Shown in pieces: positions 11,436 through 42,142 of a stretch of DNA of 64,000 nucleotides. Within the stretch, counting starts at the first letter, position 1, and every line of letters begins with the position of its first letter. The DNA comes from Candidatus Sulfomarinibacteraceae bacterium (GTDB lineage Bacteria > Acidobacteriota > Thermoanaerobaculia > Thermoanaerobaculales > Sulfomarinibacteraceae). Location of the stretch: assembly GCA_963796455.1 (NCBI GenBank), contig CAWCLO010000010.1:480001-544000 (forward strand). Direction: 5' to 3'. The notes beneath the pieces were generated by a model, which was not told the origin of the DNA, searched no databases, and worked only from the letters and a program-made list of their open reading frames with translations. Position numbers and translations under genes: made by a program.

Positions 11436-14400
11436 CTACCTTGTGCCTTGGAACGGTACTCGGATCGCAACCCACACCCGTACTTTGACACCGTTCTTGG
11501 TCGCCGGCTTGTAGCGCCACTTCATGATCGCAGTCTCAGTCGCGTCTTCAAATCCGACGCCCTTGCGCGAAACACTGATTATACGCACCTCTTCGACCGC
11601 GCCGTCGATTCCGACCAGTGCCTTGGCCTCGACCACGCCCCCGACCTTCATTCTCGATGCAACGGCGGGGTATTCCGGTGCCTCCCGTTGCACGATGACC
11701 GGCGGGCTCACACCAGGACCGGCCGCGACGATGTCTCCCTCGCGTACCGAGGGTGTTGCGGTCGGTCGGATCGGCGTCATCGTTGGCGGCATCGGGGTCC
11801 GGGTCGGCGGCACCGGGGTGGAGGTGGGGGTCGGCTCGGGAGTCGCGGTCTCGGTGGGCGTCGGGGTCGGAGGTATGGGGGTCGGGGTCGGGAACTCCGC
11901 TTCGAGCCGTTGCCGAAGATCCTCTTCCTGGCGATCGATCTCCGCCGCCGCGACCTGTCGCGCCCGCTCCAACATTTCATCCTCTGACATCAGTCCGACT
12001 GTTGGCACCGGAGTCGGCGTTTCGGTCGCCGCAACCGCGGCCGGTTCAAGCAGTACGTTTTCCGGGGGCGCTGCCTTGCGCCCAGTCATGTACCACCATC
12101 CCGCGACCGCAAGCGCGGCGATCAGGACGACGGCCAGAACCAGCCACAATATCCTCTTTGGCCCGGAGCCGCCGCTGCCGGAGCTCAAGTGCCCAGGATC
12201 GGTGCTGTCGAAATCGATGGCGGCGACCCCCGCAGGAGTTTCGCCGCTGTCGGTCAGCGCGCGTTCGAGATCGGGATCGGCCGCCTCTTCCGGACTGAAA
12301 TCAGGCACCGGAGTTTCTTCTTTTGGCGGCGCTCCCGAAATCCGATCGGAGGGACCAGCGGTTGCGGCCCTGGCGGGCGGCAGCGGTGCTGCCGGTTTCG
12401 GGACAGGGCGCGACTCGACTTCCTCTTCGCCGGCAAGCAGCCGCAAGAATCGGGCAACCGTTTCGCGATCCGGCGACCAGCCCTTGCTGCGCAATACCCG
12501 CTCGAGATCTCTCTGCAGATCCTGAGCGGATTGATACCGCTGCTCGCGGTCTGCGTTCAAGGCAAGGAAAACGATCCGATCGATATCCGCGTCCACTTCC
12601 GGGTTCTTCATTGACGGTGCGGAGATGATCGGGTCGCGAACCTGCTCGAGGACGGAGAGCTCCGAGGTGCCCTCAAATACCTTTTCACAGACCAGCATTT
12701 CATAGAGGACCAGACCAAGGGAAAAGATGTCTGAGCGATGGTCGATGTCTTTGCCCCACGCCTGCTCGGGCGACATGTACTGGAGCTTGCCTTTGAGGGC
12801 TCCGGCCCGGGTCTGGGAAGCTTTGGATGCCGCTTTCGCGATTCCGAAGTCACAGAGTTTGACATTGCCATCGAATGAAATCAGAACATTTTGCGGCGAG
12901 ACGTCCCGATGAACCAGACCGAGGTCGCGATTCTCGAAATCCTGTTTTTTATGGGCGTAGTCAAGGGCCGATGCCAGAAGCGTCGTGACATAGAGCGCGA
13001 GCTCGATCGGCATGTTCAATTTTTTTTCGCTACTATCCCGCAGAATCGTCCGGAGATCTCGGCCCTCGATGAACTCCATCGCAATGTAGTGCGATCGGTC
13101 GACCTTGCCGAGATCGTAGATGTGAATGATGTTGTCGTGATTCAGCTGGGCGGCGAGCTTCGCCTCGTCGATGAACATGCGAACGAACTCTTCACTATCG
13201 GTGAGGTTGGAGAGAATTCGTTTGATGGCTACGGTCTTCTGGAATCCTTCCATCCCCATCATCCGCGCCTTGTAAACGTCCGCCATGCCTCCAGTGGCGA
13301 TGTGATCCTCGATCACGTATTGCCCGAACTGGCTTCCCATGGGCGCTGGGATCTCGGTCTCCGGAGTGAAGCTCTTGACCTGGGGCGGTGGCGATTCCGC
13401 TGCGATCTTCTTTTCTTCAGGAGGTGTCACCTCAGGGGCGACCCTCTTCGGTTTTGGCGGCGCAACTTCGGCCGGGCGGCCGACCTTTTTCGCGACCGGC
13501 GGCACCACCTCACGCACCGGTTTGACGGGTTCGACCGGCGGCGGATCGGGAGGCGGGGGGAGTTCGGCCGGCGGCGGTTGCTGAGCCGGAGGAGCGGCGA
13601 CCTTCTTGGCCGCGGGTGGGGCGGCCGGCTTCTCGGCTTTCGGCGACGGATGAATATCGAGACCGGCGAGGGTGTCCTCGAGCAGCTTGTCGACGTCCCG
13701 TTCGGGAGCTCTTTTCTTCGGTGCCGATGCCGCTTTCGAACTCTCCAGGATATTGGCAAGCACATCGTCCACCGCGGACTGTTTTGTTGCTCCATCGGTC
13801 TTTTTCGGTTTCGGCGGATGCACCGGCGTGGGTGTCCGGAGCGGCTTGTCCTCGGGCGACGCCGTTGCCGGAGCCGCCGGTTTCTCTTTTTCTTTTGCGG
13901 GAGCTGATGGCGCCTTCGAGAACCGTGGCGGGGTCTCGTGCTCGAAAGGTTCGTCTACAGGCTTCGAAACAGGTGCTTCCTCACCACCTTCGACATCGGA
14001 GAGAATATCGCCGAACAGGTCATCCGAGGTGACCGAGCCGCCCTCGCCATCGAGACCCGCACTACGCCGCAATGCTTCGAGCATTTCCTGCGGGATGGCC
14101 TGGGTGGCGGCCGGACTCGGTGCGTTCAGAACCAGCTTCTCGACCGTTTCGCGCAGGGCGTCGGCGCCAAAGGGACGCGGCAGGATGTCCTGTGCGCCAT
14201 AACGCTCGGCATCGCCCGCCGGATCGTCGCCGGTGTAACCGGACATGAGGATCAAAAACGGTGTCTGGCGCAAACCGGCGCGGGCGCGCAGTTGGGTGAT
14301 GGCATCTTCGATCTTGAGGTTCGGCAGAACTGAGGTGATGATCGTGATCGTCGGTTCGAAGGTGGCACAACGATTGACTGCATCGTCGAGGTTCCCAGCG

Positions 14401-14492
14401 ATTTCGAGCCGGAAACCGGCGTCAGCCAGCGCCGTACGCACGTGTTCCACGTATCGCGGCTCGTATTCGACCACCAGGATATTCGCGCTCAT
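11436..14492 (-). CDS. Multidomain protein: atypical receiver, Pro-rich linker, Hanks Ser/Thr kinase, TM, TonB C-terminal domain
   Basis: N-terminal REC fold; kinase motifs GGMADVY, VAIK, HRDVSPQN, DFG, YMSPEQ; TM ILWLVLAVVLIAALAVAGWWY; TonB_C PEYP..GVV..VGIDGAV..WRYKPA. Confidence 0.92.
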   Translation of the reverse strand: MSANILVVEYEPRYVEHVRTALADAGFRLEIAGNLDDAVNRCATFEPTITIITSVLPNLKIEDAITQLRARAGLRQTPFLILMSGYTGDDPAGDAERYGAQDILPRPFGADALRETVEKLVLNAPSPAATQAIPQEMLEALRRSAGLDGEGGSVTSDDLFGDILSDVEGGEEAPVSKPVDEPFEHETPPRFSKAPSAPAKEKEKPAAPATASPEDKPLRTPTPVHPPKPKKTDGATKQSAVDDVLANILESSKAASAPKKRAPERDVDKLLEDTLAGLDIHPSPKAEKPAAPPAAKKVAAPPAQQPPPAELPPPPDPPPVEPVKPVREVVPPVAKKVGRPAEVAPPKPKRVAPEVTPPEEKKIAAESPPPQVKSFTPETEIPAPMGSQFGQYVIEDHIATGGMADVYKARMMGMEGFQKTVAIKRILSNLTDSEEFVRMFIDEAKLAAQLNHDNIIHIYDLGKVDRSHYIAMEFIEGRDLRTILRDSSEKKLNMPIELALYVTTLLASALDYAHKKQDFENRDLGLVHRDVSPQNVLISFDGNVKLCDFGIAKAASKASQTRAGALKGKLQYMSPEQAWGKDIDHRSDIFSLGLVLYEMLVCEKVFEGTSELSVLEQVRDPIISAPSMKNPEVDADIDRIVFLALNADREQRYQSAQDLQRDLERVLRSKGWSPDRETVARFLRLLAGEEEVESRPVPKPAAPLPPARAATAGPSDRISGAPPKEETPVPDFSPEEAADPDLERALTDSGETPAGVAAIDFDSTDPGHLSSGSGGSGPKRILWLVLAVVLIAALAVAGWWYMTGRKAAPPENVLLEPAAVAATETPTPVPTVGLMSEDEMLERARQVAAAEIDRQEEDLRQRLEAEFPTPTPIPPTPTPTETATPEPTPTSTPVPPTRTPMPPTMTPIRPTATPSVREGDIVAAGPGVSPPVIVQREAPEYPAVASRMKVGGVVEAKALVGIDGAVEEVRIISVSRKGVGFEDATETAIMKWRYKPATKNGVKVRVWVAIRVPFQGTR

Positions 14493-16274: not shown

Positions 16275-16934
16275 GTGACTGGACAAGTAGCAGATTATTT
16301 TCGCCAGGGTGGGATGTTCATGTGGCCGCTACTCTTTTTCTCGGTGCTGGCTGCCACCGTGGCCATCGAAAGATTTATCGTTTTTTCAAAAGCGAAGATC
16401 AACGTCGGTGATTTTCTGACCAAGATCCGCAAGGCGTTGCTTGTCAATCGCAACGTCAAGGAAGCGATCAAGGTCTGCGAGCAGAACAAGAGCCCCGTCG
16501 CCTCGGTGATGAAGGCCGGACTTCTGCGCTACGGTCACTCCCGCGAGGACATCGAGAAGACCATCGAAAACGCCGCTCTTTATGAGTTGGATCGCCTCGA
16601 GAAACGCCTCGGCGTTCTCGCGACGACCGCCAACGTCGCACCGATGCTCGGGTTCCTCGGTACGGTTGCCGGAATGATCAAATCATTCGCAACCCTCGCC
16701 GAGCAGGGTCTCACCAATCCCGCCGCGGTTGCGGTTGGTATTTCCGAGGCGCTGATTACAACCGCTGCCGGTCTTATCATCGCGATTCCCGCACAGCTGA
16801 TCTACAACTGGTATTCCACCAAGATCACCCGCTTCGTGCGCGACATCGAGACTGCCTCCAACATGCTGGTCGAAACCTTCACTGAGATGGACAGCCAGCG
16901 TTACGGTCAGGGAGGCGAAGGCCAACAGGCTTAG
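16275..16934 (+). CDS. MotA/TolQ/ExbB proton channel protein
   Basis: APMLGFLGTVAGMIKSF, GISEALITTAAGL; GAGGAGG RBS. Confidence 0.95.
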   Translation: MTGQVADYFRQGGMFMWPLLFFSVLAATVAIERFIVFSKAKINVGDFLTKIRKALLVNRNVKEAIKVCEQNKSPVASVMKAGLLRYGHSREDIEKTIENAALYELDRLEKRLGVLATTANVAPMLGFLGTVAGMIKSFATLAEQGLTNPAAVAVGISEALITTAAGLIIAIPAQLIYNWYSTKITRFVRDIETASNMLVETFTEMDSQRYGQGGEGQQA

Positions 16935-16948
16935 AAGGGAGTCCGCAA

Positions 16949-17395
16949 ATGGCGATCTTCCGCGATAGAGACCGCAAAGGCGGGGCGGCGATCTTCACGG
17001 CCTCAATGGCGGACATCGTGTTCCTGCTCATTGTGTTCTTCGTGCTGACCTACAAGGTCGAGGTCGACAAGACCAAGATGGATCTCCCGGACACCTGGAT
17101 TCGGGTCAAGGTGCCCGAAAAGGCGGCCGTGATCTCGATCTCGCCGCCCGACGCCAACCCACCGTTGACCATTCGTGTGTCAACCGGTGAGGAGATGTCC
17201 CTGCCGGTCAGCACCGACGAGGAGATTGTGACCTTCGCTTCCACCGAGGTGGCGCGGAACCCGAACAAGGAATTCATCGTCAAGGCGGACGATCAGGTTC
17301 CTTATGAACGGGTTGACGCCGTGCTCGACGCTCTGAAGCAATCGAAGGTCAAGTACATCTTTCTATTGTCCGAACAGATGACCCGAGACGAGTAA
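16949..17395 (+). CDS. ExbD/TolR family protein 1
   Basis: MADIVFLLIVFF (conserved Asp), IVKAD..V.YE.V..VLD. Confidence 0.93.
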   Translation: MAIFRDRDRKGGAAIFTASMADIVFLLIVFFVLTYKVEVDKTKMDLPDTWIRVKVPEKAAVISISPPDANPPLTIRVSTGEEMSLPVSTDEEIVTFASTEVARNPNKEFIVKADDQVPYERVDAVLDALKQSKVKYIFLLSEQMTRDE

Positions 17396-17406
17396 CGGGA
17401 GCCACT

Positions 17407-17856
17407 ATGAAGATCAAAAAGAAAGACATCCAGAGCGAGATCTTCACCGGCTCGATGGCGGATATCTCATTTCTGCTCATTATCTACTTCATGATCACCT
17501 CGGCGTTCTCGGCCACGCGAGGGCTCGATTTCTCTCTTCCCGAGGACACCCAGACGCCGGAGATCAAACAAGAGGACTCGATCGACGTCCACGTTCTCGC
17601 CGGAGGTGCGATCGAAGTTGATGGCAACGGGGTGGCTCTTGAGGGGCTGCTGCCGTATGTCGCTGCCAAACTCAAACAGAACGACGAGAAACCGGTCATC
17701 CTGCGCACCGATCCAGAGGCAACCTATGGCGATATGATTCGGGTCTTTGACGAGCTTCGTCAGGCGCCCGACAAGATTGATATGGAAATCAAGACGATTT
17801 CGATACCGACCCGACGAGAGATTGAAAATCTGTGGTCAATGCTCGGAATACAGTGA
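17407..17856 (+). CDS. ExbD/TolR family protein 2
   Basis: MADISFLLIIYF (conserved Asp), VILRTD..ATYG. Confidence 0.93.
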   Translation: MKIKKKDIQSEIFTGSMADISFLLIIYFMITSAFSATRGLDFSLPEDTQTPEIKQEDSIDVHVLAGGAIEVDGNGVALEGLLPYVAAKLKQNDEKPVILRTDPEATYGDMIRVFDELRQAPDKIDMEIKTISIPTRREIENLWSMLGIQ

Positions 17857-17867
17857 AGGGGGGAGCT

Positions 17868-18599
17868 ATGAGCGATTCTCCGAAAACCCCAGACAAGAAA
17901 ACGGATCCGAAGAAGGATCAGATTCCGATGACCACCGCCGAGATGCTGGCTGCGGAGGCCGGCCAGGACACCAAGGTGACCCGGTGGGCGATGGGAATCG
18001 CGGTCATCTTCCACATCGTGATCTTTGCCATGCAATGGCCGTCCTTTGCCGGTGGCCTGTCTGACGCCAAAGAAAAGAAAACCAAGATCTATGTCGTCAA
18101 GCAGGTGAAGTTCAAACAGCCGCCGCCACCGCAGCAGCAGCAGATCGTCAAACCGAAGACGCAGAAGGTCCCGATCCCCGATCCGACGCCCGATGAGCCC
18201 GAGCCGATCCGTGACGAGGAACCGGATGAGGACATCGACTTCGTGCCGGATGAGAATCTGGTCCTGGGCGTTCCTGATGCTCCGCCGCCGCCCGAACCTG
18301 AAGGGCCGGTGCGTTTCGTCATCGGCGGTAACATCACCGAACCCGTCAAGGTCAGCGGCCCGAATCCGGTCTATCCCGAAGCCGCACGTCGAGCCCGTAT
18401 CCAGGGTGTCGTCGTGCTCGAGTGCACGATCGGCAAGGATGGGCGGGTCCAGAACGTCAAGGTCCTGCGCGGTCTACCTCTCGGTCTGACTGAAACGGCA
18501 GTCGACGCGGTCAACAAGTGGCAGTTCCAACCGTCAACTCTGAACGGGAAACCGGTGGAGGTCCTTTATATTCTGACCGTGCGGTTCAACCTGCAGTAG
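17868..18599 (+). CDS. tonB: Energy transducer TonB
   Basis: TM with His (IAVIFHIVIF), Pro-rich linker, YPEAARRARIQGVV..GKDGRV..WQFQP. Confidence 0.92.
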   Translation: MSDSPKTPDKKTDPKKDQIPMTTAEMLAAEAGQDTKVTRWAMGIAVIFHIVIFAMQWPSFAGGLSDAKEKKTKIYVVKQVKFKQPPPPQQQQIVKPKTQKVPIPDPTPDEPEPIRDEEPDEDIDFVPDENLVLGVPDAPPPPEPEGPVRFVIGGNITEPVKVSGPNPVYPEAARRARIQGVVVLECTIGKDGRVQNVKVLRGLPLGLTETAVDAVNKWQFQPSTLNGKPVEVLYILTVRFNLQ

Positions 18600-18609
18600 T
18601 TACGCCGCT

Positions 18610-19449
18610 ATGGCCCTGCAAGGATCCTTGAGCGAGCTACCTCTGCCGGACGTGATCCAGCTGGTCAGCGTATCGGGCAAGACTGGTGCCTTCGATATTC
18701 AGGGAGAAATCCAAAAGGGTAAGATCTTCCTCCGTGACGGCCAGATCGTCGACGCGTCGGTTGGTCGTTTGCGAGGCGACAGCGCAGTGTACGAAATGGC
18801 CATCTGGTCGGAAGGCACCTTCAGCTTCAACGCCGGCGAAGAGACCGACAAAGTCACGGTTCACCTATCGAATGCCTCGTTGATGATGGAGGCCGCACGG
18901 CGACTCGATGAGTGGCGGGTGCTCAGCCGCAAGATCCCCTCGCTCGACCTCGTGCCCTACTTCACGCCTCACGATCATGGAGCAGACCAGGTCACGCTCA
19001 GTCCCCAGGAGTGGATCCTCGTGACTCGCGTCGACGGACGGCTGTCGATCGAGGACATTGCACGCGAACTCAAGTGGGCACCATTCGATGTCTCCAAGCT
19101 GCTCTTCGGAATGATCACCACCGGATTGGTGGCCCTCGGCAAACCGGGTGAGAAGGAGCGAGAGGCAACTCGGTGGCAAGCCGGCCCGAGCCCGGTGACC
19201 CTGCTCGCGCTCGCTGAGAAAATTCGCTCGGTCGCCCTCAATGTTGTCGGCTCGGGGGGTGAACGAACGATCGAAAAACAGTACACTTCAGCGCGGACCC
19301 TCATCGAGAAGGGTGAGGGCTTCCACGTTTTGAGAGATATGGTGCAACAACACACCAAGGCCATTTCGCTGCTCAAGGGCTCTGATACTGCCGCCATGTT
19401 TGACGAACAGGTCCGCCCGCTACTCGGCGAAGTGCAACAAAGTGAATGA
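18610..19449 (+). CDS. DUF4388 (PATAN-like) domain protein
   Basis: MALQGSLSELPLPDVIQL..KTG..GKIFLRDGQIVDA..W.EG.F.F..LMMEAARRLDEW; LSPQEW winged-helix-like segment. Confidence 0.88.
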   Translation: MALQGSLSELPLPDVIQLVSVSGKTGAFDIQGEIQKGKIFLRDGQIVDASVGRLRGDSAVYEMAIWSEGTFSFNAGEETDKVTVHLSNASLMMEAARRLDEWRVLSRKIPSLDLVPYFTPHDHGADQVTLSPQEWILVTRVDGRLSIEDIARELKWAPFDVSKLLFGMITTGLVALGKPGEKEREATRWQAGPSPVTLLALAEKIRSVALNVVGSGGERTIEKQYTSARTLIEKGEGFHVLRDMVQQHTKAISLLKGSDTAAMFDEQVRPLLGEVQQSE

Positions 19450-38868: not shown

Positions 38869-38904
38869 CACGTTATGGTACCGCAAAGAGCGCGGGGTGA
38901 TCCC

Positions 38905-41088
38905 TCAGCTCGCCTCTTGCGGCAAGGACAGGACAACTTCCGTGCCCTCCCCGAGGGTGCTGTCGATGGCGATCGAACCGCCATGGTTCTCGACCACACG
39001 CTGGGCGATTGCGAGACCGAGGCCGATGCCGTAGCGCTTGCCGGCATCCGTGTCGTCCCCCTGCCAGAACGCCTGAAAGACGTTCTCGAGATCAGCCTCT
39101 GCGATGCCCGATCCGGTGTCGCTGACCCGCAGCTGCAACCAGGGCTCTTTTCCGCGCACCACCCGCCGCACCTCGAGTTTCACCTCGCCGTCCTGACGGT
39201 TGAATTCGATGCCGTTTTTTATCACCGCCCGAAGGGCGGCCTCGGTGCTCTCGGGTTCGCAGAAGACCGAATCGAGCCCGCTCGGGATGAGAATTTGAAG
39301 CCGGACCTTCCGGGAATTCGCCAGATCACGGATCGGGGCCAGGGTCTTGCGGATGAGGTCCTGGATCGGAACCTGCTGCCGTTCGATCTTCCCCGCTTCT
39401 GCGGTGAGCACTTTGGCCTGAAATACGCTCTGAATCATTTCGAGGAGCTTTTCGGCCTCATCGTGCATTACCGTGACAAGCCGGGTCTTTTTGTCATCGG
39501 GTGCGTCCTTCTCACGATCGAGAATCTTGGCCGCCGTGAACAAAGAGGTGACCGGCGTGCGAAATTCCAAAGAGAGTCGATTGATGAGCTCGTTTTTTAC
39601 TTTGTCGAGCGCTTCGAGACCGCGATAGGCATTCTCCAGCAGTTCCTTTTTCTCGGCCAGGTCCTTGGCCAACCCGCGGCTCTCGGCAAGTGTCCTGCGA
39701 AGCTCGTTCGTGCGTTCTTCGACCTGCGCCTCGAGGCCGCGGCTGAAGTCCTCCATCTGGCGCCAGGCAATGGCGTTGGCATAACCCATGGCGGCTGTGG
39801 ATCCGAGGACCGTCGCAAGTTGGAGATCGTCCTCATCCAAACTCGCGCGATCGGCATCACCATAGGCACTCAAGAGCCCAACCACTTTTTCCTGGGTCAT
39901 GAGCGGGATCACGAGCGCCGAGCTGTATCCGGCACCCTCCACCGCCGCCAGAAGCTCGGAATCGCGCTCTTCGCCGATCTCTCTGGCAAGAAGCCGCGGC
40001 TGCCGGCCATCCAGAAGGGTCCCGGCCAGGGTCCCCTCCTCACCATCCGCCGTCTCCAGGAATGGGTCCTTTTTGAAACCGTGAACCACCGCCTCGCGCA
40101 GCTCGCCCGAACCCGGAATGATGAGCACCGAGGCACCCTGAACCTGGAGCAGACGAATAGCATCGGTGATCAAACGGCGCAGGACCTTCGCCGGGTCGCG
40201 TTCGTTGCTGACTGCTCGACCGAACTCCGAGATGCTGTCCATGATCCGGACCTTGCGGTCGAGTTGCCGGCTGAGGTTATCGAGCCGGGTATTGAGGTCG
40301 GTCATCGCCATGTTGGCCCGAACCGCCTCAGAGACCAGGGTCTCCTCGCTCAAGGCCTTGTCAGCGGCAATTGTCTGCTCGGAAACCGTCACCTCGACAT
40401 CGTCGGGTTCGCGCCGGTTTTCGTCATCCCCCATAAAGGGCCGCATCGCATGACGCATCTGTTGTTGCAGGCGCTCGATGGCCTGCGGATTGGTACCGAC
40501 TCCCAGCTTGTCGGCCACCGACGCCAGGGTCCGTTCGCCAATCTTGGCAAAGGCATCAAGGACCCCCTCGCCGGTGATCGCCACGGTCGGAAAGGAGGGG
40601 TACTTTTCGATATTGAGGGCGGATTCCATATCGACTATGGGCATGATCGGGTCGAGATCGCGTTTGTTGTACTGCAGCACCAGCGGCACCGCGCGTCGGT
40701 CAAGACCGTTGGCCGACATGTTCTCCCACAGATTCGCCAGGGCGTCCCTGTTTGCCTGCTCCTGGTCGGTCTGTGAGTCCGCAACAAAAACGATACCGTC
40801 CGCACCCGCGAGAACGGTTCGTCGGGTGGCGTTGTACTGAACCTGACCGGGCACCGTATACAACTGGAGCGCCAGGCGATAACCCCGAATCCGACCGAGA
40901 TTGAGCGACAGGAGATCGAAAAAGAGGGTGCGATCGGCGGCGGTGTTCAACGAATAGAGCTTTGTCCGCCGTTGCGGGTCGGTCACCTTGTGGATATGTT
41001 GCAGACAGGTGGTCTTACCGCCGACGGCGGGACCATAATAGACAACTTTGATTTTTATCTGTCGATACTGATTGTCAAACTGGACCAT
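38905..41088 (-). CDS. MglA-type small GTPase fused to GAF and a histidine-kinase-like module lacking the phospho-His
   Basis: KVVYYGPAVGGKTT, DRTLFFD, TVPGQ, NKRD; GAF; coiled coil; H-box SLEFRTP; HATPase NG, DTGSGI, GIGLGL. Confidence 0.92.
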   Translation of the reverse strand: MVQFDNQYRQIKIKVVYYGPAVGGKTTCLQHIHKVTDPQRRTKLYSLNTAADRTLFFDLLSLNLGRIRGYRLALQLYTVPGQVQYNATRRTVLAGADGIVFVADSQTDQEQANRDALANLWENMSANGLDRRAVPLVLQYNKRDLDPIMPIVDMESALNIEKYPSFPTVAITGEGVLDAFAKIGERTLASVADKLGVGTNPQAIERLQQQMRHAMRPFMGDDENRREPDDVEVTVSEQTIAADKALSEETLVSEAVRANMAMTDLNTRLDNLSRQLDRKVRIMDSISEFGRAVSNERDPAKVLRRLITDAIRLLQVQGASVLIIPGSGELREAVVHGFKKDPFLETADGEEGTLAGTLLDGRQPRLLAREIGEERDSELLAAVEGAGYSSALVIPLMTQEKVVGLLSAYGDADRASLDEDDLQLATVLGSTAAMGYANAIAWRQMEDFSRGLEAQVEERTNELRRTLAESRGLAKDLAEKKELLENAYRGLEALDKVKNELINRLSLEFRTPVTSLFTAAKILDREKDAPDDKKTRLVTVMHDEAEKLLEMIQSVFQAKVLTAEAGKIERQQVPIQDLIRKTLAPIRDLANSRKVRLQILIPSGLDSVFCEPESTEAALRAVIKNGIEFNRQDGEVKLEVRRVVRGKEPWLQLRVSDTGSGIAEADLENVFQAFWQGDDTDAGKRYGIGLGLAIAQRVVENHGGSIAIDSTLGEGTEVVLSLPQEAS

Positions 41089-41209
41089 GGGCCTCCCCAG
41101 CCTGGACAACCATTATGAATCGACTGCTGGTTTAAAACCAGTGGGAAAAAGAAACCGCCTCAAGAGCCGGTTGACGAAGCCTGCCGGCTCCGCCGCGAAT
41201 TCCGGCCCG

Positions 41210-42142
41210 TCAGCGGGGGAGCCCCGCTCCGGGTGGCACCCGCGGCGCGAACTTGACCGGCGAACCCCTTTTGGGGGTCGAGGGTCGATCAGCAGACGAC
41301 GGGCCCTCCTTCTTGGTCGCAGCGCCTACAGTCGATGCCTCGGCAAAGAAAAAGCTCGCGTCGCCGGTCGCCTCATCAATCACCGTTGCATAGGGGAAGA
41401 TGAGAACATCATCCGGGCCATCCTCAACATAAAACACCAGGCTCCCTCCGGTCATCTCGGGATCAAGGCTTCGCTGGGTGTGACCAAAGGGCGGCACATC
41501 AAAGGTCTCGGAAGCGATGATGGAGCCATCGCTGTCTTGGATGTCGAGGTGAACGACGGTCCAATCGACCGTCCACGAGGCGACACCGACGTTGCAGCGA
41601 AAAAATTGGCCATCGTTGAGGATTCCAGCGGCATAACTGAGTGTCGACCAGTCACCGGCGCGCTCGACCACCGTACCCGGCACCGCGAGACCGAACTCTC
41701 CCCCACCTTCGCCCGGCGCCAGGGTATAGGTCCGGGAAGTGACCAGAAAGTGACACTCCTCGATGGGGTCGCAACGCAGCGACGGGTCCGCATAGGCGAG
41801 GATGGCGGCGGTTTCCTCGAGATCGAATCCATCTGGGCCGAGGACGTCCCACAGATTGAAGGTTTCCCAGGCTGCGAGGGTGATCGTCATGGTTGGGACT
41901 TCGTGGTTGACAGCATCGGATGGGAGCGCCTGAACCACGACCGGGAGTTCAAAATCGTGGGGGTTGTGGAGCGACAGGTCCGTCCGCCAAAACGTGCCCC
42001 GCTGACCGGCATTGTGAGCGGCTGCAGGAATCATCCAGTCGGTGGTCAGCTGGGCCCAAAGCGAAACCGGCGTCAGTGCGGCCGCCATAACCACCAGACC
42101 ACCAAGTATGCTCGAACACTTCATCGAAACCTCCACAGTCAT
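41210..42142 (-). CDS. Secreted hypothetical protein
   Basis: Signal peptide; IPAAAH..G..GTFWRTDL.L.NP, SRTY, RCNVG, YATVID..TGD, which I recall as common in Thermoanaerobaculia surface proteins. Confidence 0.75.
   Translation of the reverse strand: MTVEVSMKCSSILGGLVVMAAALTPVSLWAQLTTDWMIPAAAHNAGQRGTFWRTDLSLHNPHDFELPVVVQALPSDAVNHEVPTMTITLAAWETFNLWDVLGPDGFDLEETAAILAYADPSLRCDPIEECHFLVTSRTYTLAPGEGGGEFGLAVPGTVVERAGDWSTLSYAAGILNDGQFFRCNVGVASWTVDWTVVHLDIQDSDGSIIASETFDVPPFGHTQRSLDPEMTGGSLVFYVEDGPDDVLIFPYATVIDEATGDASFFFAEASTVGAATKKEGPSSADRPSTPKRGSPVKFAPRVPPGAGLPR

Follow-up and report, generated by a model that had tools for sequence, protein, structure and literature searches.

Whether a histidine-kinase body that lacks its phosphorylatable histidine can still signal, and whether it might do so through a Ras-like GTPase carried on the same chain, is the question raised by a 727-residue open reading frame (protein P0001) in the window, by which we mean the whole 64,000-nucleotide stretch of DNA analyzed. 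Its features, in window coordinates, are the following.

38905..41088, reverse strand: coding sequence of the MglA-GAF-pseudo-histidine-kinase fusion P0001, a stop-free reading frame of 727 aa with full-length homologues.
41092..41096, reverse strand: GGAGG, a Shine-Dalgarno-like sequence read from the letters themselves, preceding the ATG at 41088; homologues share the start methionine.
40519..41070, reverse strand: Group 1 MglA G domain, aa 7-190 (E 3e-51), with G1, Arg53, Thr54, TVPGQ and NKRD.
40348..40503, reverse strand: helix (aa 201-219) and length-variable tether (aa 221-246) between the G domain and the GAF stalk, from AlphaFold2.
40204..40347, reverse strand: predicted long helix, aa 248-295, running into the GAF domain.
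39787..40200, reverse strand: GAF domain, aa 297-434, free of cysteine (Pfam GAF_2, E 1.1e-11).
39598..39786, reverse strand: signaling helix, aa 435-497, unbroken from GAF to DHp helix 1 (predicted as a single helix, 419-525).
39403..39597, reverse strand: HisKA-type DHp domain, aa 498-562, without the phospho-histidine but retaining the H+1 Glu and the H+4 Thr.
39568..39570, reverse strand: Leu507 (TTG) at the phospho-histidine position, from sequence, alignment, codon comparison and a public contig.
38914..39237, reverse strand: HATPase_c ATP-binding domain, aa 618-725 (Pfam, E 3.2e-22), with N, G1, F and G2 boxes.

An earlier note on this DNA had described an MglA G domain, a GAF domain and a HisKA/HATPase module in one reading frame with the ATP-binding boxes retained, and structural and Pfam matches bear out both statements. 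Residues 7-190 match Myxococcus xanthus MglA (PDB 5ymx) at E 3e-51, with 43-46% identity to M. xanthus MglA chains, and carry the motifs G1 (19-27), Arg53, Thr54, TVPGQ (78-82) and NKRD (141-144); HisKA is matched in Pfam at residues 498-555 with 26.5 bits, marginally below the cut-off of 26.9, and the ATP boxes are all there (N625, D657, G659, G661 and the G2 glycines). The H-box reads SLEFRTP, with Leu507 in place of the phospho-histidine, and the only cysteines of the protein are residues 28 and 610. The gene is flanked downstream by a RimK-like gene and upstream by a gene of no Pfam family (41210-42142, reverse strand), whose 310-aa product has a signal-peptide-like start and is conserved at this upstream place in 66 of the clustered loci. 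A promoter scan gave one match, inside the fusion coding sequence, against 0.6 expected by chance.

In an AlphaFold2 model built on a 60-row alignment (mean pLDDT 79, pTM 0.43), the G domain is followed by helix 201-219, a tether at 221-246 with pLDDT below 50, a helix into the GAF domain, the long helix 419-525 and the ATPase domain. Foldseek matched the modeled G domain to MglA chains (TM 0.87-0.92) and the kinase body to HK853-type kinases, as separate matches, and the ESM Atlas returned nothing beyond generic GAF-kinase clusters.

The best 120 matches to P0001 (the query and 119 others, the latter at 64-78% identity) are full-length; NCBI names one of them Thermoanaerobaculales, and Ca. 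Sulfomarinibacter is among the related loci. The earlier note had proposed a search for this architecture across genomes, and the fusion turns out to be a family: it is found in 24/24 other genomes of the same genus and in 61/76 of the taxonomic family, while a genome search did not find it in 8/8 genomes of genus g3, so it is dispensable in kin. Genus g248 and most of g240 likewise gave no fusion in the genomes searched. Among 401 sampled Acidobacteriota genomes, 68 match at E<=1e-60, 55 of these over near-full length, and 47 of 150 representatives at 50% clustering combine the G domain and the ATPase domain in one chain. Forty loci were fetched; reading frames with suspected internal stops proved full-length, the stop being terminal only, and four loci (L148, L158, L159, L160) are split or short. 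Variant architectures among 24 representatives scanned swap in PAS, a receiver or GGDEF, and MglA-first arrangements in P0172, P0191, P0203 and P0166 comprise MglA-GAF-GAF-GGDEF, MglA-PAS-ATPase-receiver (under Holophagaceae names) and MglA-GAF-PAS-kinase. The architecture of the Acidobacteriota fusions recurs in a second clade, in which most of the named members are MAG proteins from Planctomycetota. L069 and L078, labeled non-Acidobacteriota, nest within the Thermoanaerobaculia clade of the tree and so do not establish a third phylum.

The fusion architecture is real, conserved and apparently undescribed. Databases label these proteins "signal recognition particle receptor subunit beta" or "ATP-binding protein", and no description of an MglA-kinase fusion was found in the literature searched (supplements aside, and with subscription journals mostly beyond reach). 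The standard MglA survey took only sequences of <=240 aa, according to the available part of PMC4316618, and missed the fusion because longer sequences were left out.

The earlier note had taken the leucine codon at 39570-39568 to be no single-base error, and this stands: position 507 among the best 120 matches is Leu in 113, Ser in six, Gly in one and His in none. Its picture of a GTPase-GAF-non-phosphorylatable kinase hybrid is supported for a protein that is real and fixed in the genus, but the pseudokinase state is not family-defining. Among 119 full-length Acidobacteriota genes, His is kept in 64 and replaced in 55 (Leu 20, Thr 8, Ser 8, Ala 5, Gly 4, Glu 4, Asn 2, Asp 2, Gln 1, Arg 1), and the second clade has His in 69/70 members and a gap in one. 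Loss of His does not define the fusion family; orthologues keeping the histidine, which the earlier note would have counted against its reading, thus occur at the family level (64/119) and not among the best 120 matches. His is likely the ancestral state, an assignment made on unrooted trees, because the outside clades and HisKA kinases in general have it. Parsimony on three trees gives 5, 9 and 7 changes of His state, and starred branches force 4-6. One genome (G442) holds both kinds of gene, L143 and L144: one copy sits at the usual locus and lacks His, while the other keeps His and lies near SpoIIE, STAS and receiver genes.

It had also been claimed that TTG lies several substitutions from a His codon. 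This is true of the codon itself, yet the change was probably a single substitution, CAC to CTC, followed by synonymous drift, because CTC, found in 14/20 Leu-clade genes (the others being CTG 4, CTA 1 and TTG 1), is one step from CAC, the His codon in 3/3 His-keeping kin compared.

His-keeping fusions typically lie in an operon with a receiver-kinase hybrid, often a GAF-SpoIIE gene, and a single-domain receiver, and some distant ones add a STAS gene. Gene context was scored as a same-strand receiver, kinase or SpoIIE neighbor within 2.5 kb, which was possible for 110 genes (9/119 were dropped for short flanks). Such a neighbor accompanies 53/61 His-keepers and 0/49 His-less copies; that is, 53 genes have His and a neighbor, eight have His without one, 49 have neither, and none has a neighbor without His. 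Kin are not independent and the independent pairs are few, so the association is suggestive rather than significant: over 4-6 independent pairs, 2.8-4.7 run in the same direction, 0 in the opposite one and the others tie (sign test p 0.06-0.25), the counts just given corresponding to five pairs and p 0.125. The class with His and no neighbor (e.g., L055, L151) fits a loss of the partners before that of the histidine. L004/L089, in which His is kept beside fragments of SpoIIE and receiver genes, is a plausible intermediate in partner loss.

A search of the genome of P0001 (G000, 90.5% complete) turned up an orthologue of neither the operon receiver nor the receiver-kinase; its best match to the operon receiver has 37-43% identity, versus 53-94% among operon receivers. 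The operon receiver is present in 1/24 other genomes of the genus and in 13/77 genomes of the family, five of these 13 carrying His-less fusions and G442 carrying both kinds. In those five His-less genomes (G143, G430, G429, G447 and G470), a receiver 53-67% identical to the operon's persists elsewhere. As the earlier note had observed, neither mglB nor a response regulator adjoins the fusion gene in the window: the nearest of the 55 receiver matches in G000 lies at window positions 14142-14480, and the mglB-mglA pair lies ~108 kb away, at C10:629485-630554.

Selection on each domain was gauged by scaling tree lengths to RimK of the same loci, RimK being available at 11/12, 10/14, 4/9 and 25/32 loci. 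The G-domain tree length relative to RimK is 0.44 and 0.49 in His-less groups versus 0.47 and 0.45 in His-keeping groups. The corresponding values for DHp are 0.66 and 1.67 versus 0.64 and 0.45, and for the ATPase domain 0.83 and 1.52 versus 0.97 and 0.92, the Leu clade accounting for the 0.66 and the 0.83. The ratio of DHp to G domain is 3.2-3.4 in the older His-less clades versus 0.83-1.05 in four His clades. Since dS saturates in GC-rich kin, dN/dS is comparable within groups only: in the Leu clade it is 0.11-0.25 in every domain (38/190 pairs with usable dS), indicating purifying selection throughout, with medians of 0.11 for G, 0.19 for GAF, 0.17 for DHp and 0.18 for ATPase, and in the older His-less clades it is 0.45-0.66 for DHp and 0.33-0.54 for ATPase. 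By these rates, the receiver-docking DHp relaxes with time after loss of His, and the Leu-clade ATPase domain is unrelaxed. Residues K25, R53, T54, T78, Q82, N141 and D144 are invariant in 119/119 fusions, as are N625, D657, G659 and G661, hence in all 55 His-less members. The G domain stayed as constrained after loss of His as before, so the GTPase keeps its job without phosphotransfer.

We therefore propose, with a probability of roughly one in two, that P0001 is a soluble, dimeric and orphaned pseudokinase whose output would lie in which nucleotide, GTP or GDP, its own tethered MglA domains carry. Signaling by a GTP switch rather than by phosphate transfer is likely because the phospho-histidine and the partner genes are both missing, and the G domain is read as the working end because it is unrelaxed, though relaxation would be expected if it served only to gate phosphotransfer. 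The ancestor would have been a true kinase whose operon also encoded a receiver-kinase hybrid, a single-domain receiver and, in many cases, a SpoIIE phosphatase or STAS protein; the operon neighbors would have been deleted first, and CAC (His) would have changed to CTC (Leu) second. The GAF/helix/DHp stalk would dimerize P0001, GAF ligand and ATP binding would shift the stalk, and the shifted stalk would set the position of the two G domains or gate them. In the GTP state these domains may engage an effector, and a GAP supplied in trans, with MglB as the candidate, may reset them. Through this link, the GTPase of the His-keeping ancestors would have been able to gate phosphotransfer to the receiver. 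Control could run from the GAF/kinase body to the GTPase or the reverse. The model puts one mark against mechanical coupling of the G domain to the stalk, in that the tether is of low confidence and variable in length, with 19-47 residues between the positions of aa 219 and 248 of P0001 in 99 members.

A broader generalization, which we put forward more tentatively, is that single-chain G-protein-coupled histidine kinases occur in at least two phyla, with MglA built in at the N-terminus of GAF/PAS kinases (and of a diguanylate cyclase) and feeding into a circuit of receiver, SpoIIE and STAS proteins. This wiring may have been reversed independently in several Acidobacteriota lineages, where the phosphorelay would have been discarded and an ATP-binding pseudokinase would control the GTPase as a sensor-gated Ras-like switch in one polypeptide.

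For the proposed reading, His-less kinases acting as scaffolds or sensors have precedents in DivL and PsmA, as described in the available parts of PMC4211667 and PMC12963549. The strongest competing explanation, itself rather unlikely, is a phosphatase-only or DivL-like receiver sensor: the His-less DHp would dock a receiver encoded elsewhere and either dephosphorylate it, with the GTPase as input, or, as in the DivL precedent, relay its phosphorylation state to the GTPase. By its sequence, P0001 has the HisKA-phosphatase motif E/D-x-x-T/N (E508, T511), which is kept across the Leu clade (E/D at H+1 in 120/120, Thr at H+4 in 117/120); H+4 governs the phosphatase activity of HisKA kinases, which can need ATP (PMC8292422, in the part available), the ATP boxes are invariant, and the 55 receiver matches in G000 offer possible partners. 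Given these kept residues and the barely relaxed Leu-clade DHp (0.66 versus 0.45-0.64 of RimK; dN/dS 0.17), retained receiver contact fits equally well. Against it, searches of G000 and of 23/24 other genomes of the genus gave no ancestral cognate receiver, and Thr at H+4 is present in just 15/39 His-less members of a 99-member set and so is not generally kept after loss of His; in the Leu clade it may be a recent inheritance.

Somewhat less probable again is that the G domain alone matters, the stalk perhaps dimerizing it, and that the kinase module is a relic in slow decay that persists because folding requires it. The relaxed DHp and ATPase domains of the older His-less clades would fit such decay, as would a shortened 535-aa form in G417 (L159), a GAF-less form joining only G and ATPase domains among the representatives (P0132), the lack of any fusion found in genus g3, and the two other non-canonical MglA domains of G000, which carry nothing but long Pro-rich tails. 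Against this, N625, D657, G659 and G661 are invariant even across the 55 His-less members, the Leu-clade ATPase domain evolves no faster than that of His-keepers (0.83 versus 0.92-0.97 of RimK), and 16 further His-less reading frames were checked and are all intact.

We consider it very unlikely that the kinase is active on another residue and modifies its own GTPase. The ATP boxes are intact, and His33 in G-domain helix 1 (window 40992-40990), a conceivable acceptor, is Tyr/Phe in stand-alone MglA and present in 119/119 fusions, 46/47 representatives with G and ATPase domains and 65/66 members of the second clade (one unscored). There is no His in DHp helix 1, and His542 is variable. His33 marks the subfamily rather than substituting for the H-box, because His507-keepers have it just as invariantly and many long MglA proteins carry it too (54/68 of those without GAF or ATPase domain).

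Lastly, contigs from four public sequencing runs cover parts of the gene, one of which (X1) matches 39490-39640 with 0 differences, its run being possibly the source sample. A false fusion by assembly or a miscalled codon gains something from the fact that none of these contigs spans the entire gene, but is already refuted by independent assemblies, in that 119 other proteins align full-length at 64-78% identity, 119 distinct full-length genes come from separate assemblies, and the Leu codon shows synonymous variation among genes.

If the GTP switch is the output of P0001, as we favor, the G domain would need resetting, for which MglB is the obvious candidate. MglB was found in 53/56 genomes searched, the fusion being present in 55 of the 56. 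The only roadblock genes in the genome of P0001 are at C10:629533 and C10:189659, and no mglB lies within four genes of the fusion; orphan MglAs are a recognized class in the available part of PMC4316618. The second roadblock gene is an orphan of 117 aa (C10:189578-189931, reverse strand) beside accB/accC-like genes. On the MglB-facing surface, as defined by the interface in the available part of PMC6785124, F56 and F57 are invariant in 99/99 fusions, and the MglB-interface residue Phe59 is Leu in P0001 and in 39/39 His-less members. Because F59 is Leu despite the invariant F56/F57, we regard MglB as a candidate GAP only; SofG is an MglA not stimulated by MglB, according to the available part of PMC4316618. 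Complex prediction with residues 1-290, GTP/Mg and two copies of MglB from the same genome gave 0.46, 0.02 and 0.00 in three runs, against a mark of 0.32, and counts neither for nor against MglB. Counting the canonical mglBA pair, G000 has four MglA domains, two of them on long Pro/acidic tails in proteins of 693 and 495 aa (C1:232720-234801, reverse strand; C1:1057964-1059451, forward strand).

Judged on domains and neighbors, P0001 falls outside the stand-alone MglA, active kinase, conservon and Roco classes, although it would function as a Group 1 MglA does and has the look of a HisKA pseudokinase. Like the Group 1 MglAs of M. xanthus and T. thermophilus and SofG, as described in the available part of PMC4316618, it has an Arg finger beside the G2 Thr, a P-loop, TVPGQ and NKxD, R53/T54 being present in 119/119 fusions. 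Group 1 proteins are described there as single-domain chains of 150-240 aa, whereas in P0001 the domain opens a 727-aa chain with a sensor-kinase body, is uncoupled from mglB and is distinguished by Leu59 and His33. As for an active HisKA kinase, P0001 has the ATP boxes and lacks the phospho-histidine and a cognate response regulator. Conservons, the actinobacterial G protein system (CvnA kinase, CvnB roadblock, CvnC, CvnD GTPase), likewise pair a histidine-kinase module and an MglA-family GTPase, with no response regulator in the accounts available from PMC13343842 and PMC4316618; the latter posits the GTPase as the output, and the former calls the signal path poorly understood. Conservons, however, consist of separate genes with a Group 2 GTPase (GTPGQ, no Arg finger) and a coupled roadblock gene, and CvnA8 autophosphorylates, whereas P0001 is one chain with a Group 1 GTPase (TVPGQ, R53) and a His-less HisKA body, and in place of the four-gene cvnABCD operon there is a single gene with rimK-like and unassigned neighbors and no adjoining roadblock gene. 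DivL of Caulobacter and PsmA of Streptomyces share with P0001 a HisKA-type body with the phospho-histidine replaced and serve as polarity sensor or scaffold; in the available parts of their descriptions they have no GTPase domain, unlike P0001, and DivL binds TNP-ATP weakly (PMC4211667) and PsmA is without ATP motifs and E/DxxT/N (PMC12963549), both of which motifs P0001 keeps. Roco proteins have a Ras-like G domain in a multidomain, dimerizing signaling protein, as proposed for P0001, and the eukaryotic ones are linked to a kinase. Theirs, in the available descriptions, is a Roc/Rup-type G domain with COR and LRR; P0001 has an MglA-type domain on a two-component kinase body and gave no COR or LRR match in Pfam.

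Frz reaches MglA by an indirect route in Myxococcus. The fusion puts GTPase and two-component modules in one soluble chain, with natural His-keeping/His-less pairs (both in G442), and the direction of control between GTPase and kinase is testable with purified proteins because there are one chain, paired versions and, for His-keepers, a neighboring receiver. It also offers a clean example, repeated several times, of a kinase turning into a pseudokinase once its partners were lost.

Two candidate partners were rejected. The earlier note had suggested pairing with the pseudo-receiver at 14.1-14.5 kb, which finds no support: this Asp-less domain forms the N-terminal part of a Ser/Thr kinase-TonB_C protein of 1018 aa found in 74/77 family genomes, including 8/8 of genus g3 where the fusion was not found, and shows no co-loss with the fusion. 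The 1018-aa protein (window 11436-14492, reverse strand) comprises the Asp-less receiver, a Pro-rich linker, the Ser/Thr kinase, a hydrophobic segment and TonB_C, near genes that we take to be exbB/exbD/tonB-like (window 16275-18599). Nor is the PATAN (DUF4388) gene an obligate partner of P0001, since it is kept in 8/8 g3 genomes, in which no fusion was found, and none was found in the G000 locus. A convergent 458-aa PATAN gene flanks His-keeping and His-less fusions alike and lies between the fusion and rimK in 23/24 other genomes of the genus, being missing in G000 (window 38886-38905) and G472; it is syntenic background. Sixteen DUF4388/PATAN matches occur in G000, one of them in the window (18619-18918, forward strand). 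In family f29, a TPR-DUF4388 gene follows the His-less fusion on the same strand (L040 5433-6986, reverse; L044 9268-10818, forward) and is reminiscent of SgmX, the TPR effector of MglA.
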